Origin: a virus
Lineage: Duplodnaviria; Heunggongvirae; Uroviricota; Caudoviricetes
Length of the DNA: 64,000 nt
Direction: 5' to 3' (one strand)
Virus record (IMG/VR): IMGVR_UViG_3300018475_000095
Shown here: in pieces, positions 7,380 to 53,355 of the stretch
Numbering within the stretch: the first letter of the stretch is position 1
How the letters are laid out: the number at the start of each line of letters is the position of its first letter
Notes under the pieces: generated by a model
Databases searched by the model: none
The model's input: the letters and a program-made list of their open reading frames with translations, nothing else
What the model was told of the DNA's origin: nothing
Translations under genes and position numbers: made by a program

Positions 7380-8249
7380 TTACTCCTTTAACCCATGCGC
7401 TTCATCTAAATCTAATTTATCTTCTTCGAAGAATTCTTCACTATCATAAATTTTTGCTAACTCATCTTTATATCTTGTTAAATGATTTTCAATGGTATCT
7501 TTTATATTGTTAGATATTATTACTTTATCATATCCTTCTTTATAGCCCTTATCATCTAGCATACTTATTTTCTTTCTTAATATAGATACTTTTTTATCTA
7601 ATTCAGCTGTTTCATTTAGAGATTCTTCTGCTACTTCTTCGATTGTATCTAAGATAACCTTAGTGTGACTTATACTATTATATTGTCTATCAATCGCTAT
7701 ACCTAAAAGTTTACCTCTTATATAACCATCTTCATATTCAATTTCAACAGTTTTATTTATAAAAGGACTTAAAGCCTTTATTAATTCAGTATTTTGTTCT
7801 TGATAATCTTCATCATAACCTCAGTAATCTGAGTGATAATTAAATTTTTCAGCTTCATTGACTGTTTTAATTAGTTTATAATAATGATCTACTTCACTAA
7901 GGGATGAAACATCTAATTCTTCTACTTCTTTATTGCCGTATGTACTATCGAATATTAAATAAGATATATCTTCTATTTCCTCGTTAGATTCTTTTAATGA
8001 TTCATCTATATCATTTTCTTTTATATTTTCAATATCTTGAGCTAAGTATTCTAACGGCTGTATTAGATCATTTCTAATATATGTAGCTAATTCTTTATAA
8101 GTAGTTGCTTTAGTATATGCGCCTCTTATAGTATTTCTTATCTCATAGATAAAACTATTCATGTCATCTAATACATTTAAATCAACATCATAGTTATCTT
8201 CTAACTCCCACCCGTCGTTAATATCTTCTAATAATTTTTTAAATTGCAT
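7380..8249 (-). CDS. hypothetical protein with one in-frame TGA (7821-7823), probably read as Trp
   Basis: Track ORFs 7821..8249 and 7380..7562 are in the same frame. The 258 nt between them are open (verified codon by codon), so a single TGA separates two open halves. Confidence 0.55.
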
Positions 8250-9115
8250 TATGCGTCTCCTTCAATATATGGAAGATTTATTATATCTTCTCTTAATAAT
8301 TTTAATTTCGTTATCTCAATTATCATCAGATGTTTTATATTTAACCAGTAAGATAATTCTGAATTAGGTTCAATTATTAATTTTAAGTCTTCATTTTCTC
8401 TAGCTTTAAACACTAAATATATTTGATCTTTTATTCTAGTTGATTTCAAAAAACCATATTTGAAATAAAGGTTACCTAATTGATTTATTTCTTCAAAATC
8501 TAGTTTAACGAGATAATACCTATTACTAATAAATTTAGCATTTAAAGTAACTTCTTTATTTTCACTTTCTTTAATTATTAAACCTATTTTAGCTTGTTCT
8601 CTATTTAGCACATTAAAATCAGTATTATTTTCAGTTAATTGTAATTCTTTATACTCATTTTTATATGAATAGCCAGGTAGATAATTTATAGTTCTATCTA
8701 GTATTATTTTTAACCATGTAGATTTATGTAAATAATTTAAATCTACTAATATTGGTTCTTTTATATATACTTCGTTGATATCTTCTGTAGACTCAAATAT
8801 TAGATGTACTTTTATTTTCTCTTGCTTGCTGTAATCTATGACTGATATATTATTCCATTTTAAATATTTTGGGAAACGTTTATCTATATCCAAAGTATTT
8901 TTATTAAGTATGCCTATCTTAACTTCTGTGATATCTTTCGAAGCAGTCATATAATTACATCTGAAATATAATTTTGTTAGATCTGGTAAAATCAATTCTT
9001 GTTCAATACCAAATATTTTTGAACTAGAAGTAAGTTTGCCATTTTCATATCTGCAGTTTATAAATTTTCATTGATCGTTTTCAAATTTTGTATCAAGTAA
9101 TAAATTATATGACAT
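8249..9115 (-). CDS. hypothetical protein with one in-frame TGA (9068-9070)
   Basis: AAGGAGA RBS followed by ATG at 9115..9113, then 15 codons, a TGA, and an open frame running into track ORF 8249..8995. Confidence 0.55.
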
Positions 9116-9169
9116 ACTATCTCCTTAAAATAAAAGAAGCTATATTTAAATCAATAGCTTCTTTACTAA

Positions 9170-9595
9170 TTATTCTTCTATATCTTTAACTTCTGAAGCT
9201 TCATCTTCTTCTGGAACTGCGTATATTGGTTCTTCTACATGTTTAAGTGTATTTTCTTTTCTTAAAATCTCTTTTCTTGATTTAGTTGCATCTTTTAGTT
9301 CATTAGCAAGTTTTAATTTTTTATTATGCAATTCTATTTGTTTGTCAACTTTCAAAAGTTTTGCATCTAGTTTTTTATCAGCAAGTTCAAAGTCTCTTTG
9401 ACGTTTAATTTCATCTCTATGTTTTCTTGCTTCAGATCTTTTATCAATATCTTCTCTTTTATCTTGAACTGCTTTTTTAATTTTATAACCAAGTGCTTTA
9501 CTTTCGCTTACAATAAATGGAATAACAAATAAAACTAAAATAAATATTCCAAATGCTGCTAATAAAGCTAACATAATCCATCCAAATATTTCCAT
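9170..9595 (-). CDS. membrane-anchored coiled-coil protein
   Basis: N-terminal TM helix followed by a K/E-rich helical region. Confidence 0.55.
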   Translation of the reverse strand: MEIFGWIMLALLAAFGIFILVLFVIPFIVSESKALGYKIKKAVQDKREDIDKRSEARKHRDEIKRQRDFELADKKLDAKLLKVDKQIELHNKKLKLANELKDATKSRKEILRKENTLKHVEEPIYAVPEEDEASEVKDIEE

Positions 9596-9617
9596 ATTCT
9601 TATCTTCCTTTTAAATA

Positions 9618-11342
9618 TTAATAATGCATACCTTCTTCAGGGTCTTCATCCATAACTTCGTGAGGTATTTCATTTAATATATCAGAAGCTTCTGCTTCTC
9701 CGTCTTCTATAGTCTGGGTATTAGGAGATATTGTGCTTAAAGAAGTTTCAAGCATGCCTACATGGTTCATTTCTTCATTAACTATATCTTTAAATACTTT
9801 TGCAATATCATGATAACCTTCTAATTCTGCTGCTACTATAGCATCATTATAATCTTGAATTGCGTCTCATTCTTCTTTAATTAGTTTAGTTAATTCAGCT
9901 GCTAATCCTGCTTCTGGACCTGGTTGAATTGAATCTGGTGTTATTTCACCCCCATCCTCGATAGTAGTTCCATCAGTATAATCTTCTTTTAATTCTTGTT
10001 CTAATTCTGCAGCTTCAATTCTGTCACCGAGAGAACCTTCTTCTCTTTCTTTAACCATTTTTTTAATAGTCTCTTCTCTCGCTCTTTCTTCTGCCGCTTT
10101 TTGTTCATCTTCAAAAGATTCTTCTAACTTGCCACCATTTCTCCAAGTTAAATAAACTGTATCATATGGGATTTTAAAAGCTTTAGATATAATTTCAAAT
10201 ATGCCTTCTCTTACTGCGCTATCGAAGCCTTCTCCATCTTCTGAAGCTATTCTATAAAAATCTTCTCCTGATTGCATTTCTGACCATATATCAGCGATAG
10301 TTTTTGTTGGGTGTATTTTATCTAATTGAAATTCTTCTGGGGATATTTCTGCGTAAACTTCTTTTATTTTTCTTTCAGGTCTAATATCAAATTGAGCATA
10401 GAAGTCTTCAAAAGATTCTTTAACTATCTCAGTATCTTCTAACAATCTGATACCTTTTCTAATATCTTCATTTTCAGTTGGTCTTACAGAAGTTATTTCA
10501 ATATCTTTATCGGGTTTCTCATCTAAGAATTTCTCTTTAGCTTCTTTTTCATTAGAAGCTTTAACTCTTACTGCACCATATCCACCATATTCAAATCCCT
10601 CTCTATTATAATGAATAGTAAATTCTTTTTCTAAATTATTAATATCTTCTTTAATAATTTCTTTTTCTTTAAACCCCAAATCTTTTAAAACTTGTTTAGC
10701 ATATGTTGGATTTGTTTTGCTTTGCTTAACTATTTTATCACCATCATATATTACGATAGTTCCATCATCTTTTATATCAAAAGACATTTCTTTGCCGGCT
10801 GCGCCAGAAGTGCTATATATTTCTTCTTCTAAGCTTTCAGTGTCTATATAAAGAGAAGGTATACCTAATGTTGATTTAACATAATACTTAAAGCCATACT
10901 TATCTACGATTGCTTTAGCATCATCAAGATCTTTTTCATCTTTTATAAATTCGTATGATTTATCTTTTCTACTAAGTTGTATCTGACCTTCAGGTTGTCT
11001 CTTTCCTATCCTATAGCCAATTGGATCTGCGTTAACTAGATATTTAGCTTTACGTAATTCATCATATAAATCATCTAATATATCTTCTTTAGTTTTCTCT
11101 TTCTTTTCATCTAAAATATCTTCAAACAAACTTTCATCTAAATGCATTTTCTTTGCACCACTAACCATTTTAGGATTTTTTGGTTTTTCATCATGTTTAG
11201 GTTCTGCTTGTATTTTAGTGAACTCTGCTTTCTTTTTTTCTGCTTTTTCTATATCTCTGATAGCAGCTGCATAAGTTTGATCAACTTCACCATGATCTTC
11301 TTTCTCTACTGGAGCAAGTCCTATATTTTCATTCAATATCAT
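9618..11342 (-). CDS. acidic hypothetical protein with in-frame TGA (9867-9869)
   Basis: Track ORF 9867..11342 continues after the TGA for 82 more sense codons to a TAA at 9618-9620 (verified). Confidence 0.5.
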
Positions 11343-11354
11343 TTTATATTCTCC

Positions 11355-18276: not shown

Positions 18277-18402
18277 TTAATATTTTACTAAAATAATCGC
18301 AACTAAAAAAAATAATAATGTCGCTATAAGAATTAGTAACCCTTCTATCATAATTAATTCCTTTTTAAAAATTTTATATCTTTTTATAAACCTTTCAATC
18401 AT
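18277..18402 (-). CDS. small hydrophobic peptide (41 aa)
   Basis: ATGA overlap with the upstream stop; single TM helix; below track cutoff. Confidence 0.3.
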   Translation of the reverse strand: MIERFIKRYKIFKKELIMIEGLLILIATLLFFLVAIILVKY

Positions 18403-18611: not shown

Positions 18612-19272
18612 TCACAGAACCCTCTTTTGTGGTATCAATATTTACATATATAGGCGTATTATAAAGATCCCAATAATTAGCATAATCTTTCCAAGCTTTA
18701 TTCAAAATATCTTCTTTATGTTTCTCTTTTAATTTAGATTCTTTTATTATTTCTTTGAAATGAGTATAAGCAATAAAATAGTTATTTTTTGCAAAATCAT
18801 CAAAACCTAATTTGTAAGCAGACATTAATAACTTTAAATTTTTTAATGTTTCTTTTCGTGCATTAATTTCTGTGTCAGTTACATTAAATGGGTCTAAGAC
18901 TTCTAACTTACCTATTTTAAATCTATCATCTTTACCGCTAATAAATTTATAATTTAAAAATTTATCTTTAATAACAAAATCTATTTCTTTATTTATTTCT
19001 TGAGCTTCTTTTGCAAGTCTTTTAAATTCATCTAATTGAGAAGTGACTGCATAACTACAATCTTGGAAAGACCAATCATTATTGCTTTTCACATAAATTT
19101 GCCCATCTTTTATATCTAAAGTATTAGGTGGTGTTAAACCTTCTTTAATTCCTCTTGCAATACTTTCTTTTAAAGAATTATTTGATTCTAATTGTTTATC
19201 CATACTGATAATTATATCAATTAATTCTTCTCTTGTACATTCTGCTAATTTCTTCATTTCCAAATCTGTCAT
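18604..19272 (-). CDS. hypothetical protein
   Basis: 222-aa ORF. Confidence 0.55.
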   Translation of the reverse strand: MTDLEMKKLAECTREELIDIIISMDKQLESNNSLKESIARGIKEGLTPPNTLDIKDGQIYVKSNNDWSFQDCSYAVTSQLDEFKRLAKEAQEINKEIDFVIKDKFLNYKFISGKDDRFKIGKLEVLDPFNVTDTEINARKETLKNLKLLMSAYKLGFDDFAKNNYFIAYTHFKEIIKESKLKEKHKEDILNKAWKDYANYWDLYNTPIYVNIDTTKEGSVNE

Positions 19273-20252
19273 TATTTTATCTCCTTACTATGATTAAATT
19301 GGTCAGCTTCATTTAACAATTTTAAATTATTAAATTTTATATCCCCAAATACTTGTCTCCACTTCCTTTCAGATTTTTCAGTTTTAATATTATACATATG
19401 CATATGATAATTTATGTAAAATACTATATCTAATGTAGTATCATATTTAGGATAATCTTCTCCTAATTGTTCTATCATATACCAAGACATATAATTACAT
19501 AATACTTTATAAGCACCAACATTGGCATGATTATAGTAATGTGCATTAGGGTCATTTTCTTTATATGTCTGCGTATCAAGTTTGCCTATATCATGTAATA
19601 ATCCTGCTTCATATAAAACATTATCTATATCATATAATTGATTAGCAACCGATTCTAAATGTTCATGTAATAATTGAGTATGATGTTTATTATGTTGGTC
19701 AAATCCAAATGCAGATTTCATCATATTATTAAAATTTTCTACAGACTCATTATGCCCTATAATATTATACAGTAATATGTTGTCCCATCCTTCTTCATAA
19801 AAAGGTACTTCAAAAGATTCTAAATATCTTCTAACCACTTCTAATGGAACTTGATGAGAATTTATATCTTCATTTCTTTTTTTAACTCTTTCTATACATA
19901 CTTCATAAGGCGTGTTTACTATGTAACAAATCTTTTTACAAGGTTCTTTTATATTTAAAAATATTTGTTTTCTAGATTTAATTGTAATATTAGTTGCATC
20001 TAGGATAACATTTAATCCTTGTTTCAAAGCTATATTTGCTTGATTATATAAGCGTCTAAAAATAAATTCATTGTTCTCATCTGGAAATTCTTTTCTTAAT
20101 TTATCACTAGATAATACAATCATGTTATATTTCAAACTCAATTCTTCTGCAATAGTTGATTTACCGGAACCTTGCAAACCACACATCACAACCAGTTTAG
20201 GTAACCTATCTTCTGCTATGTCTAATCCTATTATTTTTATATCTTTATTCAT
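19272..20252 (-). CDS. polynucleotide kinase (P-loop) fused to an HD-domain phosphohydrolase
   Basis: Walker A GLQGSGKST at the N-terminus; HD motif HEHLESV...LLHDIGK in the C-terminal half. Confidence 0.75.
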   Translation of the reverse strand: MNKDIKIIGLDIAEDRLPKLVVMCGLQGSGKSTIAEELSLKYNMIVLSSDKLRKEFPDENNEFIFRRLYNQANIALKQGLNVILDATNITIKSRKQIFLNIKEPCKKICYIVNTPYEVCIERVKKRNEDINSHQVPLEVVRRYLESFEVPFYEEGWDNILLYNIIGHNESVENFNNMMKSAFGFDQHNKHHTQLLHEHLESVANQLYDIDNVLYEAGLLHDIGKLDTQTYKENDPNAHYYNHANVGAYKVLCNYMSWYMIEQLGEDYPKYDTTLDIVFYINYHMHMYNIKTEKSERKWRQVFGDIKFNNLKLLNEADQFNHSKEIK

Positions 20253-20733
20253 GCTGATTGCCTCTCTTTAAGAAAGTTTCATTTTGTATAGTATAATTAT
20301 CTAATTCGGCTTCAAATTTAGCTATTTTCAATAATACTCTATTTATTTTCCTCCTTGCTTTATGGAGTTTTGTTAAAGAGGTATCTAACATAACTCTTAA
20401 TTTTTCAATTTCTTTACCTCTCTCAGCAATTTCTTGGCTTGATTTTGTATATTCTCTTTCCAAATTTATATATAATTTATATAACTCGTCAGATAATGTA
20501 AACTTACTAAATGAAGATTTCAATACTAGTTTTGCTTCTAGGTCGGTTACCTTGTCTTGCAATTTTTCGTTCTCATCTCTAAAATCTTGAGCAAGTTTCA
20601 ACCACATATTATCCAAACTAATATGAGTTTTATGGTCTTTATATAATTCATTATAACAGTTGTTACATAAGCCCATTTCCCAATGGATATCTCCTGTTAA
20701 AATTTCATTTCCGCATTTAACACATTTACTCAC
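20245..20733 (-). CDS. zinc-finger / coiled-coil protein
   Basis: CVKCGNE...CNNC at the N-terminus, followed by a coiled coil. Confidence 0.5.
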   Translation of the reverse strand: MSKCVKCGNEILTGDIHWEMGLCNNCYNELYKDHKTHISLDNMWLKLAQDFRDENEKLQDKVTDLEAKLVLKSSFSKFTLSDELYKLYINLEREYTKSSQEIAERGKEIEKLRVMLDTSLTKLHKARRKINRVLLKIAKFEAELDNYTIQNETFLKRGNQHE

Positions 20734-34821: not shown

Positions 34822-35232
34822 TTATTTTAAAGCATCCATAGCTTCATTTGCTAATTTATCTGCCCTGTTATTAAATTCATTATCTGAGTGTCCTTTTACT
34901 TTTATGAATCTAATATCTTTAAATTTATTTATATATGTATACAGTTCTTCCCATAAATCTAAATTAGCTTTTTTATTCCAATTTAAATTAATTGTACTAA
35001 CTACATATTGGCTATCTGAATATACTTCAATAGGAATATCATATACTTTTAATGCTTTTAACCCTTCTATCACAGATAAAATTTCCATTTTATTATTAGT
35101 TGTATTTCGAAAAGCATTTTTTAGTTCTTTATATTGATCTTGGTACTGAAGCACTATCCCATAACCACCTATGTTTTCTGCAAATTGATTTCCTCTACAA
35201 GCACCATCAGCATATATCTTAATTTTCTCCAT
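34822..35232 (-). CDS. rnhA: ribonuclease HI
   Basis: YADGACRGN, MEILSVIEGL, SDSQYV and KGHSDNEFNNRADKLA match RNase H catalytic blocks. Confidence 0.85.
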   Translation of the reverse strand: MEKIKIYADGACRGNQFAENIGGYGIVLQYQDQYKELKNAFRNTTNNKMEILSVIEGLKALKVYDIPIEVYSDSQYVVSTINLNWNKKANLDLWEELYTYINKFKDIRFIKVKGHSDNEFNNRADKLANEAMDALK

Positions 35233-36490
35233 TTAAGTATCTCCTTGTAATTTCAGATAAAGTTTCTATTGTGTTTAGTTGGGAATTCTCCATAACTTTG
35301 CCTAATAAGAAATTAAGAACCTTACCTATCTTCTCACCACTTATATCAAATGTAGATTGAAGAAAGTGCCCATCTATTGCCAAGTCTTGTAATCTATATG
35401 GTTGACTTGTAATTTCTGACAAATCTATTCCTTCTATTTTTGTGTAAATACCCAAATACTTGCATACGTATGCATGTTCAAATTTATTGAATAGTTGCTT
35501 GATTGTTAGGACAATATCTTGTTGCTGAACATCTTCCATAAACTTTGACATCTTATAATAGCTAATAACCTCTTTGATTTGTTGGTTACTATATTTATAT
35601 AACCTCATCCAAATTTCTGCATCTATCATTGACTTATACTTATTCAATATTGAATACAACTTTAACATAGGTGGGTTGTCATTATCTATATCTATGATGA
35701 CCTGGTTACTACCCCATTTACTTACTTTGTTTTGAGGTATCTCAAATATCTCTGCTAGTGTTTCTATTGTTGAATTTAAAGTTTCAGAATTACCTTTTGA
35801 ATATTCTAATATCTTCTTAACTTCTTCAGTAATTCTTTCTTTTGATACATTCTTTAAGAGACTACCAGTACCCGCTATAACATTGCTTGTTGCATTCTCT
35901 AACTCAAAATTATACTTACAAGCAAATCTAATGCCCCTTAAAATTCTCAAAGCATCTTCTTTTATTCTAACCTGTGGGTCTCCTACTGCTTTAACTATTT
36001 TATTTTTAATATCTTCAACACCATTATGTGGGTCTACTATACCTACTAATGGGTTATAAGCAATAGCATTCATAGTAAAATCTCTTCTATCTAAATCATC
36101 TATAATAGATTCACCAAAAGTTACATTATTTGGTCTTCTACCATCAGTGTAATCGCTATCATATCTAAATGTGGTTATTTCATAAATACCTGCAAGATGT
36201 TCATATTTATTTAATTTATATTTTTCTATAACTTCAATAGTCATAGTGCCATATTTTTCTCCTGTTGGAATAACTTTAAAATAAATATCCATATCACTCT
36301 TGTGAAAACTATTATCTTCAAATAGTTTCTTTGTTTCAGCAGGTAAAGCACTTGTTGCTATATCCCAATCTTTTGGTTCAATACCTAATATAGAATCTCT
36401 AATAGCGCCACCAACTGCATATGCTGCATAACCATTTTCATTTAACATGTTTATTAGTAATTCAACATATTTTGGTAATTTTATCTCCAT
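35219..36490 (-). CDS. cca: tRNA nucleotidyltransferase (CCA-adding enzyme / poly(A) polymerase family)
   Basis: YAVGGAIRD...DWDIAT is the class II head-domain motif. Confidence 0.8.
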   Translation of the reverse strand: MEIKLPKYVELLINMLNENGYAAYAVGGAIRDSILGIEPKDWDIATSALPAETKKLFEDNSFHKSDMDIYFKVIPTGEKYGTMTIEVIEKYKLNKYEHLAGIYEITTFRYDSDYTDGRRPNNVTFGESIIDDLDRRDFTMNAIAYNPLVGIVDPHNGVEDIKNKIVKAVGDPQVRIKEDALRILRGIRFACKYNFELENATSNVIAGTGSLLKNVSKERITEEVKKILEYSKGNSETLNSTIETLAEIFEIPQNKVSKWGSNQVIIDIDNDNPPMLKLYSILNKYKSMIDAEIWMRLYKYSNQQIKEVISYYKMSKFMEDVQQQDIVLTIKQLFNKFEHAYVCKYLGIYTKIEGIDLSEITSQPYRLQDLAIDGHFLQSTFDISGEKIGKVLNFLLGKVMENSQLNTIETLSEITRRYLNGEN

Positions 36491-37865: not shown

Positions 37866-38410
37866 TATTTTTCGGTACCTCTATTTTGAAATTTTTTATT
37901 ATAACCACATGGATTAAATTCTGTGCACACGCCTCCTCTATATGCACAAAGTGGAACAAGTAAATCTTTGAACTCTGGATTGACCTCAATTACTTGTCTG
38001 CAGATTTCTTTTACTACATCTCTTGTTTCAGGTGAGGCTTGGTTACATAATCTTTTATGAGCCAAGAATAATAGTTCTTGTGCATTGATGGACATAATAT
38101 GAGATACAATCGCACCTTGTGGTTTTTCTGCTCTTGGTGTTGCATCATTTGTTCTATCATCTCTTTGTGTTTGCACATAATGATTAACCCCAATATGATG
38201 TCTTACAAGATGAACTGATACATAATAAGGTATCTCCATTTTAATACCAAACCATAATTCTCTTATAGGTGAATGTTCTGCCATAAGTAATTTTACTTTC
38301 CAAGCATCCGTTGCATCTTTTGTAGATGTTTTACCTACCGTGTTGAGCGTACATTTTCGAACATATCTCCAATCTTCTTTGGTTGGATGTTTTAAAATTT
38401 CTACTTTCAT
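37865..38410 (-). CDS. divergent ThyX-like (flavin-dependent thymidylate synthase-like) protein
   Basis: EHSPIRELWFGIKMEIPYYVSVHLVRHHIGVNHYVQTQR parallels the ThyX RHR...S...R block, but reads RHH and is only 181 aa. Confidence 0.5.
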   Translation of the reverse strand: MKVEILKHPTKEDWRYVRKCTLNTVGKTSTKDATDAWKVKLLMAEHSPIRELWFGIKMEIPYYVSVHLVRHHIGVNHYVQTQRDDRTNDATPRAEKPQGAIVSHIMSINAQELLFLAHKRLCNQASPETRDVVKEICRQVIEVNPEFKDLLVPLCAYRGGVCTEFNPCGYNKKFQNRGTEK

Positions 38411-39498
38411 TATAGTATGATCTCCTCCAATGGTTCTTTGTATTTTAATACAGTATCAGTTATAACTTTACTGTTTACATCGGTGACAAATTTATTCAAT
38501 TCATCATAATTAGGTGTTTTTTGCAATGTAGAATGTCTCTCTGCTAATTGTAATCTTTTATTTAATCCATTTAAAGTATTTGTAAATTCTGCTGTTAAAT
38601 GACCATCTTTTATAAACTTACCATTTCTGATATCCAATAGAAAATCCCTATCATCTTCTCTATAAGAATTTAATACACCTTTCTCTAGTATCTCACAACA
38701 AGTTATGATTAGTCTAAATAAGTGCATGCAATGTTTATTCAATTTTTCCATAGTTGGTTTAGTATTTCTTTGATTTATTTTATTATAACTTTTTTCTATA
38801 GTTAATATATCATTTAAAGAACTTCTTACTAGGTCTATTGGTGCTTGTTTTATATTACAGTCAATATAAAGTTTATCTAAATCTGCAGTAACATTTATAC
38901 AGCCGTCTGCAAATAATTTGTTTGATTCAGATAGTTTCATCATAGCAACATCCATTGTTTGCTTTATATGTTTTACTTTTTCTTCTTCAGTATATTCAGT
39001 ACTTGCTAAAGCATTTTCAATTTTTCTTAATTGCGCTACTGCGTAACCATTAAATGTTTGATAACATTTTTTACTTAATAATAAAGGTAAACTATCAAGT
39101 AAGTCATGCCCAATTTCATTAAATATAAGATAATGTTTGAAACCTAACATTTCAATCACATTTGGGTTATTTGCCATAGCAAGTTTGATAAATTGATTAA
39201 ACTCATAAATAGTTGTGTCTGTGCTCGAATCTTCTCTTTGTTTAAAAGTTTTTAACCCAATCAATTCATCTTTAGTGGGTAGCATAACTCCTCTTATATC
39301 AATATCACTACCTTCTACATTAGTACCATATCCATGAGAACCTGATATAACTAAGAAGCATAATCTATCTTTATATTCTTCTAGCCATCTATACTCAGGT
39401 TTACTTATTATTTCTTTTATATTCAACATACATTTATCCTTTCTAATTTTATCAGCAACTAATTTGGCTAGAGTTCTTACTTCATCTATATTAGACAT
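38410..39498 (-). CDS. pol-beta superfamily minimal nucleotidyltransferase
   Basis: GSHGYGTNVEGSDIDI is the GS...DxD NTase motif. Confidence 0.65.
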   Translation of the reverse strand: MSNIDEVRTLAKLVADKIRKDKCMLNIKEIISKPEYRWLEEYKDRLCFLVISGSHGYGTNVEGSDIDIRGVMLPTKDELIGLKTFKQREDSSTDTTIYEFNQFIKLAMANNPNVIEMLGFKHYLIFNEIGHDLLDSLPLLLSKKCYQTFNGYAVAQLRKIENALASTEYTEEEKVKHIKQTMDVAMMKLSESNKLFADGCINVTADLDKLYIDCNIKQAPIDLVRSSLNDILTIEKSYNKINQRNTKPTMEKLNKHCMHLFRLIITCCEILEKGVLNSYREDDRDFLLDIRNGKFIKDGHLTAEFTNTLNGLNKRLQLAERHSTLQKTPNYDELNKFVTDVNSKVITDTVLKYKEPLEEIIL

Positions 39499-39500
39499 TA

Positions 39501-39929
39501 CTAATCCCCCATCTCTGAAAATGGAACTAAATCAATATTGCTAACTTTTTTACCATATTCAAGTTCAAGTTCTGCCATTATTGAATTTTCAGTAACAATT
39601 TCATCTTTTTCAATATGTCTAGCAAAAACATTACCAGAGCCATCCTTATAGCTAACATACATTACATACTGACCAAATTCTATTGGTCTATTTCTTTCTC
39701 GCTCTATCCACTCAAGTCTTTCTTTTTCTTTTCTTTCTGCTATTAAAGCCTCTTCTTTTTGTTTTAAAATTTTAAACTCTTCTTCGGTAGTTATTGTAAC
39801 AGTTTCACCATTCTCTAAATTTAATTTACAGTAATAAGGATTGCCCCAAGCATAATGAGCATCAATCACATTTACTCCATTTATAGAATCTAATAATGTC
39901 ATAAAATACCTCCTAAATTTATTATACAA
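39501..39929 (-). CDS. hypothetical protein
   Basis: 142-aa ORF. Confidence 0.5.
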   Translation of the reverse strand: MYNKFRRYFMTLLDSINGVNVIDAHYAWGNPYYCKLNLENGETVTITTEEEFKILKQKEEALIAERKEKERLEWIERERNRPIEFGQYVMYVSYKDGSGNVFARHIEKDEIVTENSIMAELELEYGKKVSNIDLVPFSEMGD

Positions 39930-41172: not shown

Positions 41173-41475
41173 TTAAATTAAATTAGAATCTTCATATTTA
41201 ATATTTAAAAAACTTTCTTTATAATCATCTACAGATTGCAAAGAATCAATTTCTACATATCTCTTGACTGCCTCCTCTTCATTTATTTTATCCAAGAAAA
41301 TCACATTAGTATCTAAATCTATCTGTAATACTTCTCTTTTTAATAATCCAGAAGGCAAATATTTAATTTCATAAATTAATACCTCATCTAATGTTTCTAT
41401 TCTATCTTCTACTCTAGCTTGCAATTTAAATTTCACGCTACCTCTAAGAAGTCTTTCTAAATCTTTTAATTTCAT
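41173..41475 (-). CDS. hypothetical protein
   Basis: 100-aa ORF. Confidence 0.5.
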   Translation of the reverse strand: MKLKDLERLLRGSVKFKLQARVEDRIETLDEVLIYEIKYLPSGLLKREVLQIDLDTNVIFLDKINEEEAVKRYVEIDSLQSVDDYKESFLNIKYEDSNLI

Positions 41476-41636
41476 TTACTCACCTCTATTTTAGATACAG
41501 TAATAATTTGGCAATATGGATAATCTTGTTTAAATTTAATACAAGCTTCTTTCTTACTGTTGGATTCATATTTTTTATTAAAACTTAGTAAACCTGTATT
41601 AATATCTATAAAAGATATTATGTATTGTTTTTTCAT
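41472..41636 (-). CDS. small ORF (54 aa)
   Basis: ATGA overlaps at both ends with the flanking genes. Confidence 0.35.
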   Translation of the reverse strand: MKKQYIISFIDINTGLLSFNKKYESNSKKEACIKFKQDYPYCQIITVSKIEVSK

Positions 41637-43619: not shown

Positions 43620-43934
43620 TTAATCTTCATACCAACCATAGTTAGATAAATAATCTTTTCCAATAGGATCTACATATTTTCTAATATAATTTTTAACTTG
43701 ATTTTTAGCTATAGTTATACTGTCATCTCAAAATGGTTTTCTAATTAATAAATCTGCTTCTATAACATAATCACCATAACTTTTAGCTTGATTAATTTCG
43801 TCTGTAAAGTAAAAGCCAAATCCATGCCCTAATGCATGAGCTCCAATGAATTGCTGCTCAAATCTGTCGAATTCTGCATTAGATCCATGATATGCGTGGT
43901 ATAAATTATTAATCTCTTCCTTTAAAAATTTCAT
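43620..43934 (-). CDS. small H-Y-E-class ADP-ribosyltransferase-like protein with in-frame TGA (43728-43730)
   Basis: AYHGSNAEF and GHGFGFYFTDE resemble the PARP HGS and GKGIYFAD motifs. After the TGA, 35 more sense codons run to a TAA (verified). Confidence 0.45.
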
Positions 43935-44016
43935 TACGTCTCCTAAATAAATATCTTATACTTATTCCACCTATACCGTTTCCTAAAACTATAATTAATA
44001 ATCTTAATAATACCTC

Positions 44017-44493
44017 TCAAGAATATATAAAAGTAAAATTAAAGTAAAACATGTCTGCAATACAGTGTTCTAATCCTATAACTACAAAGATAATAACTCC
44101 AAAGAAAAGAGATAAAATACCTCTTATATCTTTGAACTTATTGTATCCTTCTACCGCTATATAAATTAATATGTTACATAAAATTCCGAGTATAAATAAA
44201 CTTATATAGGAATCACTTAATTTGATTTCACATATTGCATTTGCATACTCTATTAGATTAATTAACCGTGTAGCTCTACACATTAAAGCTAGTAATAATG
44301 TTCCTATAAAATTACCAAGTAAAGTTATAACTACTTCTAAATAATTTTTCTTTTCTATAACATAACAAATCTTACCTGTGAATAAATTTAATTTAAAAGT
44401 AAGTATAACAAATAATCCTACAGTAAATAAGAAAGCACCCACTATTTTATCAGGAGATGATAGATAGGCTAAACAGCCTATCCCTATAAACAT
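44017..44493 (-). CDS. polytopic membrane protein
   Basis: Four or five TM helices. Confidence 0.5.
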   Translation of the reverse strand: MFIGIGCLAYLSSPDKIVGAFLFTVGLFVILTFKLNLFTGKICYVIEKKNYLEVVITLLGNFIGTLLLALMCRATRLINLIEYANAICEIKLSDSYISLFILGILCNILIYIAVEGYNKFKDIRGILSLFFGVIIFVVIGLEHCIADMFYFNFTFIYS

Positions 44494-44530: not shown

Positions 44531-47500
44531 TTATTCAATAGGAACTCCTGTGTGTTTGACTCTATCTTCTACTTCCGCTATCTTACCTTCATTAAAATTA
44601 TGATAATCTGTAGAAACATATCCTGTAACTCTTCTTAATCTTTCAATATTATCTGAACCACATTCTGGACATTTATCATTCATTTCTTCTTGATGTCCGC
44701 AGTCCATACAAACATCATTTGGTACGTTTATAGCAAAGTAAGGTATATCTTTATCCATAGCATAATTAACTAATTTTTCAATAGCTTCTATATTATGAAT
44801 TGAAGATGAATCTAATTCTACATAAGTAATACACCCAGCTGAAGAATAACCTGTTAATTGACTTTCAATATCTATTTTATCAAAAGCATTTATGTTATGG
44901 TATACTGGAACATGCATTGAATTAGTAAAATATTTTCTATCAGATATATTTGGAATAATACCATATTTTTCTTTAAATTTAGTCATAGCAGTTTTACATA
45001 AAGATTCTGCAGGAGTATAATAAACACCAAAATTTAATTTATATTGTTCTTTAAAATAAGCACATTTATCTTTAAATAATTGTTCTATCTTTTTAGCAAG
45101 TTCCATACCTTCTTTTGTAGTATGGTCTTTTCCAATTAATATTTGTAAACATTCAGCAAGACCTAATTGACCTATAACTAATGTTCCATGTTTTAAAGCA
45201 CTCCTAATTCCTTCTTCTGGAATATAACCAGCCATTGTGTTATTTTCATACATAAATGGGGCTGATTTAGGTGATTGGCTACAGATATGCTCAAATCTTT
45301 CTATCAAAGAGTCTTTTGCTTCATTTATTTTACATTCAAGTAATCTCATAAATACATCTATATCTGATTCTTCTGAAGCTCTTGTACATTCTTTAGATTT
45401 CATTGCTATTGTTGGTAATATAATAGTAGTAGGTGCAATATTTCCTCTACCATCTTTTTGTTGTTTTAAACCATTAATATCCCAACCATTTGCAGTTCTA
45501 CAGTTATGCATTATAATATCTGAACCTATAAATGAACCAGTTTCAGTACCTATATCGTAGCTATCAACTGCTTCCCAATGCCAACATATATCAGTTATTT
45601 CTAACTCTAAATTATCAGCTCTATAAAGTTTATCACCTATTTTTAATTGATCTGCTCTTGTAAATTTATCTCCTGTCCATAGAGGGTGATCTTCAGTACA
45701 AGACAAACAATATTCTTTATCGTATTCTTTGTAATAGATATGCATCATATACGGAGTATTTAATTTATCATTTTTAAAGATATGTTTGATCTTTACCCAT
45801 TTATTATCTCTATCTAATACTTTAATATCAAATTCAGATAAATCAATCAATTCTTGTTTTTTACTCAAATCAACTTTAAATACAGGTCTATCATATACTC
45901 TATGCCTAGATTTTTGAGTAATTAACTTATAATATTTCTTATCTGTTCCTCTAGGATTTATATTTGCATTCTTTTGAATATAAAGGTTTTCAGCTTCTTT
46001 ATAATCTTCAGTTATTTCTAATACTTTAAATTCATAATTAGCTGTATCAATATCCCCAAAATTTATTCCTGCATCAATCCCACCTGTTTTGCCTATAGCA
46101 CATTTATGCTCAGCGCATCTTCTAGAAATAGAACTTGAACTTCCAATATATGTGACATCTTCTGGTAAATAAGTTATTGAATAAACACCTGGTAGATTAG
46201 GTAATCCAGATTTTTCTTGATAATGTCTACCTAAAGGCTCTTCATTTAATTTTTCTCTGTTATACCAAATCTGTGTTTTCTTATAATTTTGTAAATCATC
46301 TGTTTTACAATAATCAAATAAGTCTCTGATAGATAAGTCAATAGGTTCTTCATTTCCTATTTTAACTGTTAGATGTTCATGACCACTCAAAGCACCCATT
46401 GTACTAAAATATGTTTTTGGATCATTTACATCGTAACCTGCATTACCACTCCAATCAACTGAGGCATAATTTGGATACAATCTCTTTGAAGTTGATTTTA
46501 ATGCTAACTTAAATAAGTCATAATTTGGATCGCCCGGTTTTCTGTTAACACCTTTCATGCACTGGAATATACCACAAGGGAATATACTTGTTCTATGATA
46601 TTTTCCTAAACCTTCAATAGATACATTTAACAATTCTTCTGTTATCATTCTACCTTCTGGTAAAGTGCAAGTTCCATAATTTATAGAGCTAAATGGTAGT
46701 TGTTGTCCACTTCTTGATTGTAATGAATTTAAATTGTGATATAATGCTTCAACTGCTTGATGTGTTTCTTTTTCAGTTTGTCTCATAGCATATTCATAAG
46801 CATCTTGATTTAGTTTATATTTTTCGTCAATTATAGAAGTTTCTTTTGTAATTCCTTCTAAATACTTTTCATTACCGAACCAATATAATCCTTCTTTATA
46901 ATGTTTATAAAAACTCTTTCTTACATAAGGGACCATTGACCAATCAAAGTGAGTATATGATACACCACCAAATTGACATAAACTTTGTAATTGCATTATA
47001 ACAGCTGACAATTGCATCGCTGTATTTACTGTTCCAGCAGGTCTTATATCTGTCTGTTTAACTTTAAATCCTTTTGCTAATAAATCATCTAAAGGAATTG
47101 ATAAACAATTATGCATACCACTTGCATAAGCATCTAAATCATGTATATAAATTTCATTATTAATATGATTATTTCTAGTAGTTTCTGATACTAAATTATT
47201 AAGTGCATATTCTTTTAATATAGTTCCAAATGCTTCTTTCTCTCTTCCACTGAAAGTATTTTCATCTAGGTTTGCATTTGAATTTTCTACATTCTTTGCT
47301 TCTAGTTTAGCTTTAACTTTATTCATTAGTTCAGTATAACTATTTCTAGCTAGTTTATGTAATTGTCTATATTCTATGTATGCTTTTGCTTGTTCATATT
47401 TATTAGCTTCCATCAAAGTTAGTTCTACAATATCTTGAATTTGTTCTACAGTATAATTTTTTCTTTTATCTAATTGTTGTGTTACTTTATTTGTTAATTC

Positions 47501-47626
47501 TGTTATCACACCATCATTAACATACTCACCTTTAGGACAACAATCTTCAAAACAACCTAATATTGCTTTCCATATTTTATACTCATCAAATTTTTGCTTT
47601 GATCCATCTCGTTTTATAATTTGCAT
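44531..47626 (-). CDS. nrdD: anaerobic ribonucleoside-triphosphate reductase, interrupted by an intein-like insertion
   Basis: Class III RNR; C-terminal CMDCGHQ...CPECGS zinc ribbon plus glycyl-radical RVTGYVS. At 1031 aa it is far longer than typical NrdD. Confidence 0.9.
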   Translation of the reverse strand: MQIIKRDGSKQKFDEYKIWKAILGCFEDCCPKGEYVNDGVITELTNKVTQQLDKRKNYTVEQIQDIVELTLMEANKYEQAKAYIEYRQLHKLARNSYTELMNKVKAKLEAKNVENSNANLDENTFSGREKEAFGTILKEYALNNLVSETTRNNHINNEIYIHDLDAYASGMHNCLSIPLDDLLAKGFKVKQTDIRPAGTVNTAMQLSAVIMQLQSLCQFGGVSYTHFDWSMVPYVRKSFYKHYKEGLYWFGNEKYLEGITKETSIIDEKYKLNQDAYEYAMRQTEKETHQAVEALYHNLNSLQSRSGQQLPFSSINYGTCTLPEGRMITEELLNVSIEGLGKYHRTSIFPCGIFQCMKGVNRKPGDPNYDLFKLALKSTSKRLYPNYASVDWSGNAGYDVNDPKTYFSTMGALSGHEHLTVKIGNEEPIDLSIRDLFDYCKTDDLQNYKKTQIWYNREKLNEEPLGRHYQEKSGLPNLPGVYSITYLPEDVTYIGSSSSISRRCAEHKCAIGKTGGIDAGINFGDIDTANYEFKVLEITEDYKEAENLYIQKNANINPRGTDKKYYKLITQKSRHRVYDRPVFKVDLSKKQELIDLSEFDIKVLDRDNKWVKIKHIFKNDKLNTPYMMHIYYKEYDKEYCLSCTEDHPLWTGDKFTRADQLKIGDKLYRADNLELEITDICWHWEAVDSYDIGTETGSFIGSDIIMHNCRTANGWDINGLKQQKDGRGNIAPTTIILPTIAMKSKECTRASEESDIDVFMRLLECKINEAKDSLIERFEHICSQSPKSAPFMYENNTMAGYIPEEGIRSALKHGTLVIGQLGLAECLQILIGKDHTTKEGMELAKKIEQLFKDKCAYFKEQYKLNFGVYYTPAESLCKTAMTKFKEKYGIIPNISDRKYFTNSMHVPVYHNINAFDKIDIESQLTGYSSAGCITYVELDSSSIHNIEAIEKLVNYAMDKDIPYFAINVPNDVCMDCGHQEEMNDKCPECGSDNIERLRRVTGYVSTDYHNFNEGKIAEVEDRVKHTGVPIE
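45506..46396 (-). mobile_element. intein-like (Hint) element within nrdD carrying a GIY-YIG endonuclease domain
   Basis: Block-A-like ALSGHEHLTVKIG...IRDL, GIY-YIG core GVYSITYL...YIGSS...R...EH, block-B-like TEDHPLWT, and block F/G SYDIGTETGSFIGSDIIMHN followed by Cys. Confidence 0.55.
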
Positions 47627-47720: not shown

Positions 47721-48212
47721 TTATATCTTATAATTCTCGTATAATATACCAGAACTATAATATCTTTTTATCTTTTTTATAATATCTTCTGGTAAAATAT
47801 CTTTTGTATTAAAATACTTACCAGCTTTTCTATCTCCTCTAATACCTATTCATATAATAGGATATTTAGTCAGCCAATTTTCTAACGTATCTAGTTGAGA
47901 ATAAGTAGGTAATTTCGTAGGTAATTCTATGTAAGGATCTGAATCTGTTAATACTCCATCATTTACTCTTATGCAATTAAAATCGTCTATAAGAATAAGT
48001 TTGTCTAGTTCGAATGGTGAAGTCTCTATTAAATTATTATCATAAAGAAAATCATCTACTCACATGTGAGATCCTTCCTCTATATTTAAATATTCACCAT
48101 CCTTCAGTATATAAGCAGCCCCACCAAAATAACCAAAGCTTATTTGATTATCAAATAAATTTAAAATTTCTTGATATAAAGCTATGTTTGAATTTTCTCT
48201 TAAAAATCTCAT
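47721..48212 (-). pseudogene. degenerate or frameshifted gene with an additional in-frame TGA at 47850-47852
   Basis: ATG 48212 gives 53 codons then TGA. Downstream coding potential moves between frames, and the final 105-codon open frame contains one TGA. Confidence 0.35.
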
Positions 48213-48895: not shown

Positions 48896-49483
48896 TTACT
48901 GTAAAGTTTCAAAAGTATTTACACTCAGTTCATGACAAACTCGTATCTCATAATCAGTTTCTGTTAATCTCTTTTTATACTCTCTCGATTGTAATTGACC
49001 TTGAATTAAAATCTTGTCCCCAACATTTAATTTATTTAATGCCTTAGCACACTTCCCTCATGCAACACAAGGTAAATATACATTTAATACTTGCCCATTA
49101 TTTTCTATATTGTTTGCTAATATAAAATCTAAAACATCTTTTCCAGATGATGTTTTTCTTAAATTATTCTTTTTACATATTCTACCATCTATGTATGCGA
49201 GATTATTAGGACTTTCTTCTGCTTCATCAAAATAAGTAAATACAAATAATTCTACTTTATTTCTATCTTCTTCTTGTCTATTAAAAGTTCTAATATTACC
49301 TAGAATAGATATTTCTTGATTTTCTTTATATGGGTTTGAAAACTTTTTAAATTTTAAATTTATAATATCTTCTTTTCCATTTTCTCTTCTAGTTATTAGA
49401 TTAGCTTTATAAAATTCTATATCTTGTATATAATGAGAATATTCTATATTTTTTATTATTCCATTTAATTGTATCTTGTTCAT
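48896..49483 (-). CDS. ssb: single-stranded DNA-binding protein with in-frame TGA at 49058-49060
   Basis: The N-terminal OB half is track ORF 49058..49483. After the TGA the frame continues GKCAKALNKLNVGDKILIQGQLQSREYKKR...TDYEIRV to TAA 48896. The TGA sits at the conserved CV(T/A)W Trp position of SSB. Confidence 0.75.
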
Positions 49484-50803: not shown

Positions 50804-51337
50804 TTATTTGTTTATTTCTATCAATTCATCAAGTGTTTTAGGTTCAAAATCTATTACATCTGCGCCAACATTAAATCTATTTGGAATAACTTTATACCCA
50901 TTATCTGCATTATGCACATGTCCATATAAATGATAACTACCTCTATACATTCCATCCCAATCTTCTATAGGATAGTGGAACATTATAATTCTTCTATTTT
51001 TGTCATCATAGATATCTTTATACATTTGTATAGATTCAAACAGTTTTTCTTTACATTGATTATTATAGCTTTTTAACCATTTACTATCATGATTGCCTAT
51101 TATTAAATGTTTCTTACCATTTAAGTTTTTAATTAAAGTAAATAACTGCTGATAACCACCATTTGGACATTTGTAAGATAAATCACCTAATATATAAATC
51201 TCATCTTCAGGTTTTACTTTTTTATTGCAATTATGTATTAGAACCGCATGCATTCTTTCTAAATCTATAAAAGGTCTATTACAAATTCTAATTACATTTT
51301 CATGGAAGAAATGTGTATCACTAATAAAATACTGCAT
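50804..51337 (-). CDS. calcineurin-like metallophosphoesterase
   Basis: SDTHF, GDLSYK and GNHD motifs. Confidence 0.7.
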   Translation of the reverse strand: MQYFISDTHFFHENVIRICNRPFIDLERMHAVLIHNCNKKVKPEDEIYILGDLSYKCPNGGYQQLFTLIKNLNGKKHLIIGNHDSKWLKSYNNQCKEKLFESIQMYKDIYDDKNRRIIMFHYPIEDWDGMYRGSYHLYGHVHNADNGYKVIPNRFNVGADVIDFEPKTLDELIEINK

Positions 51338-52056
51338 TATTCTTCTTTTAACCCTTCAGCTACTTTATCAGCAATTTGTCCATGAGTTTCATTATCTACT
51401 TGATTTACTTCTACTTGAACTTCACCTTTTTGTACTTTAGTCATAAAATCAATTGCATCTGCAGTTTGTTTTAACTCTGGGTCCTCTTCAATTTCTTTTT
51501 GTAATTCTTTTCTTTTCAAATCTAAAGATTCTAAATACATCTCAACAATTTGCTGTCTTTCTTCATCAGTAGCATTATCAAAATCTTCTCCAACTTCAAG
51601 ACCAATATCAGCAAGTGTGATGCCTTCTAAATGATCTAATTCATGTTGGAATACATAAGCAGCCATACCAACCATTCTTCTTGACTCTGGTTTACCTAAT
51701 GCAGTTTGGTACATAACTTCAATTTGATTGTATCTTGGCACTAAATATTCTTTACCTGGTAAACTTAAACATCCCTCTCTATTAATACTCATACCTTTTG
51801 TTTGAGTTATAATTGGGTTGATAAATGCTCTAATATCCCCATTAAAATTGATTACAAATATTCTTTCTTTTTTACCAATTTGTGGAGCAGCTAATCCTAC
51901 ACCATTTTTACTTTCTCTTAAAGTTTGTTTTAATTCAACAACTGTTTCTCTAACTGCTTCATTGTTCTTTCTAACATCTACCTCATCACATCTGTTAGAA
52001 AGCTTTTCTAAATCTGTTACGATTTCTTTAATATAATTTTTATCATTACTAATCAT
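51337..52056 (-). CDS. def: peptide deformylase with C-terminal acidic extension
   Basis: GLAAPQIG, EGCLSLPG and QHELDHLEG motifs. Confidence 0.8.
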   Translation of the reverse strand: MISNDKNYIKEIVTDLEKLSNRCDEVDVRKNNEAVRETVVELKQTLRESKNGVGLAAPQIGKKERIFVINFNGDIRAFINPIITQTKGMSINREGCLSLPGKEYLVPRYNQIEVMYQTALGKPESRRMVGMAAYVFQHELDHLEGITLADIGLEVGEDFDNATDEERQQIVEMYLESLDLKRKELQKEIEEDPELKQTADAIDFMTKVQKGEVQVEVNQVDNETHGQIADKVAEGLKEE

Positions 52057-52087
52057 CTTTTCTTATCTCCTTAATATATTATACAGT

Positions 52088-52630
52088 TTATAAGTATTTA
52101 GTTGACACTAGTTCTACTAATATATCATACAAACTTGTTCCTCTAAAATCATTCTCTCTTGATAAGATATATCCAAAATCATATTCAAATAATTCTATAT
52201 AACCATCAGCAGCTTCTATGTCTATCTCTTCTTCTTTACCTTTTGGAATAAATACTAACGGATACATAAAAGGTTCAATGGTTTCATTTACTAACTCTTT
52301 ATTATAATAACCATCTAAACCTATTTCAATATAGTTATCAATAGCGCCAAAAGTTTCTATGAAATCTTTTTGACTTTCATAATAACCTTTCTTATAAGCA
52401 TCTATTATTAAATCTCTATGTATTATATCATATGAATTACCTATCATATACTTATCTATTCTAGCATCATATAATATTCTATATAAATCTGGGTTATTTA
52501 TCAAAATATCTTTTATATTGTATTCACTTAAATTTAGTTTGCTGCTACTTAAAGATTCTTCTAATCTCTCTTTAACTTTTATTTGATTAGAATTAAATAC
52601 TATTTTTTCTTTAATCAACCAATCGACCAT
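52088..52630 (-). CDS. hypothetical protein
   Basis: 180-aa ORF. Confidence 0.5.
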   Translation of the reverse strand: MVDWLIKEKIVFNSNQIKVKERLEESLSSSKLNLSEYNIKDILINNPDLYRILYDARIDKYMIGNSYDIIHRDLIIDAYKKGYYESQKDFIETFGAIDNYIEIGLDGYYNKELVNETIEPFMYPLVFIPKGKEEEIDIEAADGYIELFEYDFGYILSRENDFRGTSLYDILVELVSTKYL

Positions 52631-53355
52631 CCTGCATTTAAATACTTGTCTAAGTATTCTTTAGGTACTCGAGTATTTTTGGTGCCATCATTAATACCAA
52701 TAGTCCCTCTTAATTTATCTGCTCGTTTTTTCTTTGTTTCTTCTGACTGGGTAATACACCCCTTCAAACCTTTATTCCAAGGTATCTGACCTTTATGTGA
52801 GTCACTCATACGCTTTCTCTGTAATTCAGTTGCTTTATGCCCTAAATGATTAGTGTTACCTTTACTCCGTTCTCTACATTTCTCACAATACTCTGCTGAC
52901 ATTTTCTTGCCTTTATTCCAAGGTACTTGATTTAAATGTGCTAGTCTTTGTTTCTCACGAGTTTCATCTGATACATCATAAGTTTCTCTACTAGCCAAGC
53001 GTTTAGCTATCCATTCCTTTGATTGGGTCTTGCCAGAGTTTGTATCCCCACCATCTCCACCCGATGCCATATTGTAACAAAACTCTTTGCCAAATGAGTC
53101 TCTATAAAACTTTATTCAATAAATCTCTTTCTTATTTAACTCTTCTATAGTAGAGGCAGTGTCAATTGTCTCGACACCGAAATTACACTTACCATATTTA
53201 TTAATTGCCTCATAAAGTAATGATAGATTTCTATGTTCTTGAGCATATATTTCAGATGCTTTTAAGTGTTGGTTATATCTGGTCTCAACACTTTTAGTTG
53301 TCTTCCCAATGTATACTTTCCCATTTGAGTTGTTGGTTATTTTATAGATATACAT
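52615..53355 (-). CDS. GIY-YIG homing endonuclease with NUMOD3 DNA-binding repeats, one in-frame TGA (53116-53118)
   Basis: N-terminal IYKITNNSNGKVYIGKT...R...H catalytic domain (track ORF 53116..53355). After the TGA, 15 sense codons lead in frame into track ORF 52615..53070, which carries PWNKGxK NUMOD3 repeats (verified). Confidence 0.7.

Follow-up and report, generated by a model that had tools for sequence, protein, structure and literature searches.

How can a virus afford stop codons in the middle of its genes, and what, in such a virus, reads them? The question is raised by a stretch of 64,000 nucleotides (the whole of the DNA that we analyzed, which we call the window) from the IMG/VR record IMGVR_UViG_3300018475_000095, a virus of the class Caudoviricetes in which several otherwise open genes, among them those for the single-strand binding protein SSB and for a GIY-YIG homing endonuclease, carry TGA in frame. 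The window is part of a phage genome of ~154 kb (~154.4 kb) and 27 % G+C that comes from gut or rumen metagenomes. With the ~15 kb of flanks that we reached from the proteins at the edges of the window, ~79 of ~154 kb could be read; the rest presumably holds the capsid, terminase, lysis and polymerase genes.

We show here, by comparison with relatives, that the TGA codons sit at tryptophan (Trp) positions and that the halves into which they seem to split genes are single genes. The interpretation that UGA is translated as Trp appears well supported by the same comparisons, and we think it very likely that the clade to which the phage belongs uses TGA as a Trp codon, a recoding of the code-4 type, decoded most likely by a phage tRNA with the anticodon UCA at 57332–57425. 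Recoding as such is of a known kind, and the phage is a low-usage member of the code-4 gut phages. The five-armed design of the tRNA looks new, however, and so does the invariance of the TGA in SSB. Charging with Trp, the code of the host, competition with release factor RF2 and any role in timing are things that we infer.

TGA codons in open genes

The G+C content of the window is ~27 %, the GC skew is strongly negative throughout, and the minus strand carries all the long open reading frames (ORFs). The initial annotation had listed seven TGA codons within open genes, and all seven are what it took them to be: TCA on the plus strand, TGA on the minus (coding) strand, with an open frame on both sides. 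That frame extends upstream and downstream for 146 and 146 codons at 7821, 18 and 272 at 9068, 495 and 82 at 9867, 75 and 35 at 43728, 69 and 42 at 47850, 142 and 53 at 49058 and 90 and 166 at 53116. At least three further sites join them (48060, in the same gene as 47850, as well as 44017 and 52615), for a total of at least 10 in eight genes, with domains or homologues that span them (Table 1). The upstream parts were said to carry a ribosome-binding site and ATG; the ATG is there, while a strong AGGAG precedes only five of the eight (genes A–E). The downstream parts do lack starts of their own, for none of the nine internal TGAs has a start codon preceded by a Shine–Dalgarno sequence within the next 40 codons.

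Is TGA needed anywhere as a stop? In a gene set called greedily under code 11, the terminators are TAA 71 times, TAG 17 times and TGA 12 times, and among the last 12 is one false ORF that lies within a tRNA gene. Each remaining TGA is either internal or stands one to four codons ahead of TAA or TAG (52615, 41633, 41472 and 18399), and the ~15 kb of flanks hold no TGA terminator. No gene of the window needs TGA as a stop, therefore, and the genome agrees fully with code 4. At 41633 and 41472, the TGA could be a leaky stop backed by a second one, or a sense codon that does no harm; together with 18399, these two may be former TGA stops that were given back-up terminators once a suppressor was present.

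Sequencing error is excluded, because exact-protein look-ups find the same window proteins, identical, in >30 assemblies from different samples. The TGAs themselves recur unchanged in >20 independent assemblies, again from different samples, and the orthologues have TGG or TGA at these places, so that chance is no better an account of them.

What amino acid does the codon stand for? Across all loci, 23 of the 26 TGA columns in reliable orthologue alignments pair with TGG or TGA, the others with TAT (two) or GAG (one), and a codon-by-codon comparison gave at least 11 further columns with TGA in relatives and TGG in the window. Several of the full-length proteins in databases had been called under code 4; because such calls are no evidence for TGG, we checked the codons in the DNA. 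Gene C, whose homologues lead to a clade of relatives of 135–155 kb (our loci L004, L005 and L006 among them), is a case in point. At the column of 9867, the homologous proteins P0003, P0004 and P0008 have Trp and P0002 ends exactly there; the DNA has TGA in L004 and TGG in L005 and L006, and the C terminus ...EEDPEEGMHY is common to all. Gene B has the exchange in the other direction as well, with TGA in relatives where the window has TGG at 8855, 8714 and 8345.

Homologues of SSB and of the GIY-YIG protein, solved structures included, have Trp at the TGA columns. For the first column of the homing endonuclease, this is so in I-TevI (1mk0), and the homologue from an unrelated phage (L008) has TGA there, too. 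That TGA had been placed between the catalytic and the NUMOD3 domains, which was mistaken: it lies inside the catalytic domain, where the Pfam match, 1–86, covers residue 80. At the second column (52615), the L072 homologue reads on, with tyrosine and then LKRR. In five genes altogether (C, D, H, SSB and GIY-YIG), a TGA lies within the span of a Pfam match. The conserved ...LGNxxGG motif of gene H lies downstream of its TGA, and three independent homologues of gene E (P0170-P0172), single ORFs across both TGA sites, share with it a strongly conserved C-terminal motif, LPEDIIKKIKRYYSSG, past the second TGA; no residue is conserved at the two TGA columns themselves. The identity of the residue is supported at 7821, at 9068, at 9867, in SSB and at the first column of the GIY-YIG gene.

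A standard pipeline would call the phage code 11. Gene calls under tables 11 and 4, a comparison that had been proposed for the complete genome and that we made for the window, give 55.6 kb and 57.7 kb, respectively, of long coding-strand frames. The gain under code 4 is ~3 % of the window, below the 10 % rise in coding density over code 11 that a survey took as its criterion for recoding (PMC13037316), and the public code-11 gene calls split the homing endonuclease (79 + 151 amino acids) and cut SSB to 141 amino acids.

Table 1. Genes, codons and tRNAs of the window that bear on the reading of TGA
Feature	Position	Strand	Remarks
Gene A, 289 amino acids, function not assigned	7380..8249	-	TGA 7821-7823; TGG at the column in L004, L006; no start downstream
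Gene B, 288 amino acids, function not assigned	8249..9115	-	TGA 9068-9070 (residue 16); TGG in L005, TGA in L004, L006
Gene C, 574 amino acids, C-terminal rubrerythrin/ferritin-like domain	9618..11342	-	TGA 9867-9869; weak Pfam Rubrerythrin match spans the site
Near-terminal TGA	18399..18401	-	ATGA overlap; TAA four codons later; L004, L006 orthologues read on, leucine at the column
CCA-adding-type tRNA nucleotidyltransferase	35219..36490	-	Pfam PolyA_pol, PolyA_pol_RNAbd, tRNA_NucTran2_2
Near-terminal TGAs, 41633-41635 and 41472-41474	41472..41635	-	each in an ATGA overlap with the next gene start; TAA after 4 and 1 codons
Gene D, 104 amino acids, ART-PolyVal domain	43620..43934	-	TGA 43728-43730; Pfam ART-PolyVal 14-87 and phrog_31411 14-100 both span residue 69
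Gene H, 194 amino acids, formate/nitrite transporter family	43909..44493	-	TGA 44017-44019; Pfam Form_Nir_trans 7-179 spans residue 159
Gene E, 163 amino acids, function not assigned	47721..48212	-	two TGAs, 48060-48062 and 47850-47852
SSB gene, 195 amino acids	48896..49483	-	sole Trp codon is TGA 49058-49060
GIY-YIG/NUMOD3 homing endonuclease, 251 amino acids	52600..53355	-	TGA 53116-53118; second TGA 52615-52617, five codons before TAG
Five-armed Trp-type tRNA	57332..57425	-	anticodon loop CU-UCA-AA; extra hairpin loop CU-CCA-AA; no CCA end encoded
Ordinary phage tRNA-Trp (CCA)	61494..61567	-	in tRNA array 60.7-63.6 kb

TGA usage and the SSB codon

If TGA means Trp, how often is it used? It makes up ~6 % of the Trp codons of the window, with 11–12 TGA against 175–180 TGG (11 against 175 in genes of at least 100 amino acids). 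TGG is as abundant as had been said, TGA is a minority codon, unlike in the genome-wide code 4 of the Mollicutes type, where it predominates, and the large genes for nrdD, DNA ligase and PARP have no TGA at all. Sparse, gene-specific recoding, as the initial annotation put it, is a fair description of this genome but not of its lineage: in the syntenic regions of relatives, TGA takes 1 % of the Trp codons in L005, 9 % in L073 and in L151, 13 % in L004, 18 % in L006, 24 % in L152, 37 % in L072 and 46 % in L153.

The codons are also unevenly placed. Only 2 of 12 TGAs fall within 11.4–43.6 kb, a region that holds 118 of 192 Trp codons (P ≈ 0.0015, for a region chosen post hoc), and the genes with TGA form two groups, one at 43.6–53.4 kb and the other at 7.4–11.3 kb. 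In the half or so of the genome that was read, TGA is found in the SSB, homing endonuclease, transporter and ART genes, and the tail-fibre-like genes (523-7377 of the window, and those of L003) are free of it, as is all of the ~15 kb read beyond the edges of the window, tail-fibre-like genes included. In relatives, one gene may hold as many as 8–10 TGAs; L153 has them in tail genes, with 8 in one peptidase gene. Between relatives, conserved Trp columns give 49 mixed TGA/TGG pairs as opposed to 6 TGA/TGA pairs: most sites swap the two codons as if neutral.

And SSB? Its TGA column is Trp in 20 of 20 full-length homologues and in the SSBs of the PDB entries 5odp and 6bhw, and the codon is TGA in each of the six clade genomes for which we have DNA (the window, L072, L073, L151, L152 and L153; near position 10425 in the L loci), in proteins whose identity spans 93 % down to ~55 %. 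Outgroup sequences have TGG (19), phenylalanine (7) or tyrosine (3) at this column. The pattern is suggestive only, coming from six genomes and with no phylogenetic correction, of a TGA that is itself maintained by selection, possibly through a dependence of SSB on the suppressor. To the proposal that a UGA-reading tRNA may serve as a timing switch, it would lend some support, and this for SSB alone. A close relative of this SSB was not found in IMG/VR. The closest INPHARED match of nrdD, at 77 %, is to Thomasclavelia phages, and SSB matches there are at ~30 %.

A UCA tRNA with a second anticodon-like loop

What, then, could read UGA? The candidate is a gene that ARAGORN calls "tRNA-SeC (tca)" at 57330–57426 and that the Rfam tRNA model matches with 38 bits. 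In its fold, the acceptor stem has 7 bp, the D arm is weak and the anticodon arm starts right behind position 26; the variable region forms a second hairpin, the T arm is canonical, and the loop of the second hairpin is the anticodon loop of tRNA-Trp. The acceptor end has A1–U72, G2–C71, G3–C70 and G73, and there is an A9; A1–U72, G73 and A9, all counted among the acceptor-end identity elements of tRNA-Trp in bacteria, vary little or not at all across the family. With its five arms and an extra loop that copies the Trp anticodon, the tRNA bears out the expectation of a different suppressor design.

The same design stands at the same locus, with compensatory changes, in L072, L073 and L151, and so in four of the four clade genomes that cover the locus. 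According to a motif scan, 13 further phage contigs from IMG/VR, 63–136 kb in length, have it as well; there it lies within ordinary tRNA arrays, often beside tRNA-Trp(CCA), and has its CCA end encoded. In an alignment of 14 sequences, the five-arm structure is 98.6 % paired and 16 of its 26 pairs show double changes, with covariation in both hairpins; partners slid out of register pair at 37–48 %. When the second loop was left free, a scan returned 16 more long-armed phage UCA tRNAs, built on several different scaffolds, and U-CCA-A, sometimes in a 9-nucleotide loop, is present in the extra-arm loop of 15 of these 16, from which it follows that decoding is the task of the UCA arm and that the extra arm conserves a likeness of the Trp anticodon. 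The two-loop design is thus found in ~30 phage contigs (L007-L019, L072, L073, L116 and L134-L151 among the loci). The genomes of 185,579 bacterial and archaeal species gave one contig with it, binned into a "Bacilli bacterium" metagenome-assembled genome (MAG); the other matches of that scan were mostly false positives, either ordinary tRNA-Trp genes after a chance CTTCAAA (Rothia and others) or genuine selenocysteine tRNA (tRNA-Sec). No description of the two-loop design was found in the searchable literature. For recoded jumbo phages, one paper notes tRNAs with tRNAscan "introns", which may be the same objects.

The path that we propose would begin with RNase Z-type 3' processing of the UCA tRNA and with CCA addition, since the missing end could be supplied by the CCA-adding-type enzyme that the phage encodes. 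The mature tRNA would be charged by the tryptophanyl-tRNA synthetase (TrpRS) of the host, its anticodon would pair with UGA and, by wobble, with UGG, and ~10–13 TGAs in nine or ten genes of this genome would be read as Trp. If the host uses the standard code, the tRNA would compete with RF2, and full-length SSB, homing endonuclease and the other products of TGA genes would be made only once the tRNA is present. The ordinary tRNA-Trp of the phage stands among 15 ordinary tRNA genes at 60.7-63.6 kb, and ten mid-sized ORFs of the window that we scanned gave no Pfam match to RF1/RF2 or TrpRS.

Why a second loop? We can imagine, tentatively and with more doubt than conviction, that the extra hairpin is a decoy, a Trp anticodon loop (U-CCA-A) that enables charging by TrpRS, and that SSB has been left permanently dependent on the suppressor as a replication checkpoint. 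A host TrpRS that normally needs C34-C35-A36 would then charge a tRNA whose decoding arm reads UGA, either by direct recognition of the extra loop or through an alternative conformer of the junction that places the CCA hairpin at the anticodon position. In that event, the replication of DNA would be tied, with the code change as a checkpoint, to whether the phage expresses its translation apparatus.

We considered whether the element might be a Y-RNA (YrlA) of the kind that goes with Ro60, which would call for a neighboring Ro60 gene with a TROVE domain and for a tRNA-like module that a Ro-binding stem closes off, so that no acceptor end is free, and we rejected this. The neighboring vWA-like gene, 320 nucleotides upstream of the tRNA, hits DUF2828/DUF7788 and not TROVE; Rfam gives the tRNA model alone, and the flanks are not conserved as a stem; 52 relatives of the neighboring gene lie in other phages with no UCA tRNA beside them; and the same tRNA, in other phages, stands in ordinary arrays with its CCA end encoded. 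The neighbor itself, a DUF2828/DUF7788 protein with a vWA-like DGSGSM motif (57746-59251, minus strand), adjoins the UCA tRNA throughout the clade and is widespread in large gut phages (52 loci, L020-L071). Phage tmRNAs occur in the same arrays as the two-loop tRNA in L011, L012, L013, L017 and L018, and of the five tags predicted for them, four have the ending ...AFA or ...SFA in place of the common ...LAA. We take such tags to resemble those of Mollicutes, and they may hint at a host lineage.

Weighing the explanations

Several observations weigh against the proposal that the clade reads TGA as Trp through the UCA tRNA. Its basis is sequence. The copy of the tRNA in the window has its weak D stem and a G7·A66 mismatch. 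At four sites (43728, 44017, 47850 and 48060), the evidence supports continuity of the gene alone. Beyond the window, 9.5 kb of late genes of a tail-fibre-like kind are free of TGA, which misfits the usual picture of recoded late genes. Genes for RF1, RF2 or TrpRS, or heavier recoding, are possible elsewhere, in the part of the genome beyond the ~79 kb.

The alternative that survives best is that the host itself uses code 4, as Mollicutes do, and that the phage follows the code of its host, with the UCA tRNA as a supplement. The very low G+C content would suit this, as would the dispensability of TGA as a stop and the fact that the only bacterial genome with a two-loop tRNA is the "Bacilli bacterium" MAG contig, and the ...AFA or ...SFA tmRNA tags would point the same way if they are indeed like those of Mollicutes. 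Even so, we hold it to be unlikely. TGA is the dominant Trp codon in AT-rich code-4 Mollicutes, and shares of 6 % here and 1–46 % in relatives are not what such a host would lead one to expect; the phage, moreover, keeps Trp tRNAs with both CCA and UCA anticodons. Standard-code hosts are also what Borges et al. predict for code-4 phages (10.1101/2021.08.26.457843). The nearest cultured relatives of SSB and nrdD infect Enterocloster, Butyrivibrio and Thomasclavelia, which are standard-code Bacillota.

Could the TGAs simply be leaky stops? UGA is the leakiest of the stop codons, a purine directly follows all nine internal TGAs, and a tRNA with a weak D stem and no encoded CCA might be non-functional or have some other role, which would leave read-through to the near-cognate tRNA-Trp(CCA). 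We regard this as very improbable. An essential SSB that relied on read-through of a few percent is implausible, such read-through could not support the 8–10 TGAs per gene of the relatives, and it would not account for a UCA tRNA conserved, with compensatory changes, in every clade genome that covers the locus and in many other phages.

That the TGAs are real stops, in split genes, pseudogenes or assembly errors, is what the public code-11 calls of SSB and of the GIY-YIG gene would suggest, and it is barely credible in view of downstream parts that are conserved in frame and have no starts, of identical TGAs in >20 assemblies, of the swapping of TGA and TGG at Trp columns and of a shortened SSB that, by comparison with Pfam and the PDB, would lose part of its oligonucleotide-binding (OB) fold. 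Selenocysteine, or the glycine of code 25, can be dismissed almost entirely: the ARAGORN "SeC" label is given to any UCA anticodon and the long extra arm resembles tRNA-Sec only superficially, the TGA columns align with Trp, sometimes with tyrosine or phenylalanine and never with cysteine or glycine, and the 7/5 acceptor/T geometry (tRNA-Sec would have 8/5 or 9/4), A1–U72 and G73 are unlike the genuine tRNA-Sec sequences L092 and L123, although no search for a selenocysteine insertion sequence (SECIS) was made.

Neighboring genes and the place of the phage among recoded genomes

A few features of the genome deserve mention for their own sake. The nrdD gene (44531-47626, minus strand, 1031 amino acids) has an insertion with a GIY-YIG-like motif (…GVYSITYLPEDVTYIGSSSSISRRCAEHK…) and is TGA-free, and its orthologue in L073 bears annotations of intein-splicing and HNH domains; the insertion looks like an intein with a homing endonuclease. 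A toolkit for the maturation and repair of tRNA or RNA lies within 16-39 kb, where the CCA-adding-type enzyme is accompanied by an RlaP-family nucleotidyltransferase (38410-39531), a kinase/HD protein (19272-20267) and a peptide deformylase; one relative has Thg1 (L005 190-999). Just beyond the start of the window, beside tail-fibre-like genes, is a reverse transcriptase (RVT_1; L003 12149-12806, L005 15925-16644, L153 9126-9989), and relatives have Mtd_N-like proteins, which makes it probable that we have here a diversity-generating retroelement with tail fibres as its target. At its very end, over 173 bases (63771-64000 region), the window is wholly unlike contig L001, to which it is otherwise 99.97 % identical. 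A partial tRNA match (63771-63827, Rfam model positions 8-63) marks the break, whose cause is a structural variant or else a junction made at the tRNA during assembly.

How does the phage compare with systems in which stop codons are known to be read as sense? With Mollicutes and mitochondria, it would share UGA read as Trp through a UCA anticodon. In those systems, TGA is the dominant Trp codon genome-wide, RF2 is lost and the tRNA-Trp(UCA) is an ordinary one with four arms, whereas the present phage uses TGA for a minority of its Trp codons and has a tRNA with five. Like class II tRNAs and tRNA-Sec, the UCA tRNA has a long extra stem-loop between the anticodon arm and the T arm; it differs in an extra loop that copies the Trp anticodon loop, in its Trp-type acceptor and in an acceptor/T geometry of 7/5 and not the 8/5 of tRNA-Sec.

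The initial annotation had likened the recoding to that of crAss-like and Lak phages. The principle is the same, namely that a phage with a standard-code host reassigns a stop codon and brings its own suppressor tRNA to do so, but those phages mostly read TAG as glutamine and have late genes that are heavily recoded in blocks, and the nearest precedent is instead the TGA-to-Trp code-4 gut phages, such as Agate and Jade. Recoding of TAG to glutamine has been validated by metaproteomics (PMC9523058); the present phage is known from its sequence. Like the code-4 gut phages, it is large, low in G+C and from the gut, with TGA at Trp positions and almost never as a terminator, a UCA suppressor tRNA, a level of recoding that varies widely among close relatives and a homing endonuclease that carries TGA. 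TGA-to-Trp phages were reportedly described earlier, by Ivanova et al. in 2014. Borges et al. (bioRxiv 10.1101/2021.08.26.457843) described code-4 phages of the guts of humans and other animals, including Agate (~127 kb) and Jade, with relatives that may differ in code at >90 % average nucleotide identity; among these phages are near-standard-code relatives with a TGA suppressor tRNA, and a homing endonuclease is one of three families that prefer TGA. The phage studied here differs from these in a usage far below what pipelines detect, in the TGA-free tail-fibre-like late genes that we could read and in a suppressor tRNA with an extra arm and a Trp-anticodon-like loop. It differs from Agate, whose replication genes are reported to be in the standard code (10.1101/2021.08.26.457843), in a replication gene, that for SSB, with a TGA that is invariant in the clade.

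What would all of this mean? Recoded genomes of low usage escape detection by coding density, as this one does with a gain of ~3 % and public calls that split both SSB and the homing endonuclease. If confirmed, the two-loop tRNA may account for the finding of Borges et al. (10.1101/2021.08.26.457843) that TGA suppressor tRNAs are detected in only 35 % of code-4 phage genomes. Likewise, if it is confirmed, a replication protein such as SSB that keeps TGA as its sole Trp codon even between diverged members of the clade would offer a concrete and testable instance of recoding that gates one particular gene. And the second, Trp-anticodon-like loop, again if confirmed, would suggest a natural way to alter an anticodon and yet keep recognition by a synthetase that reads the anticodon, which is a known problem in the engineering of tRNAs.

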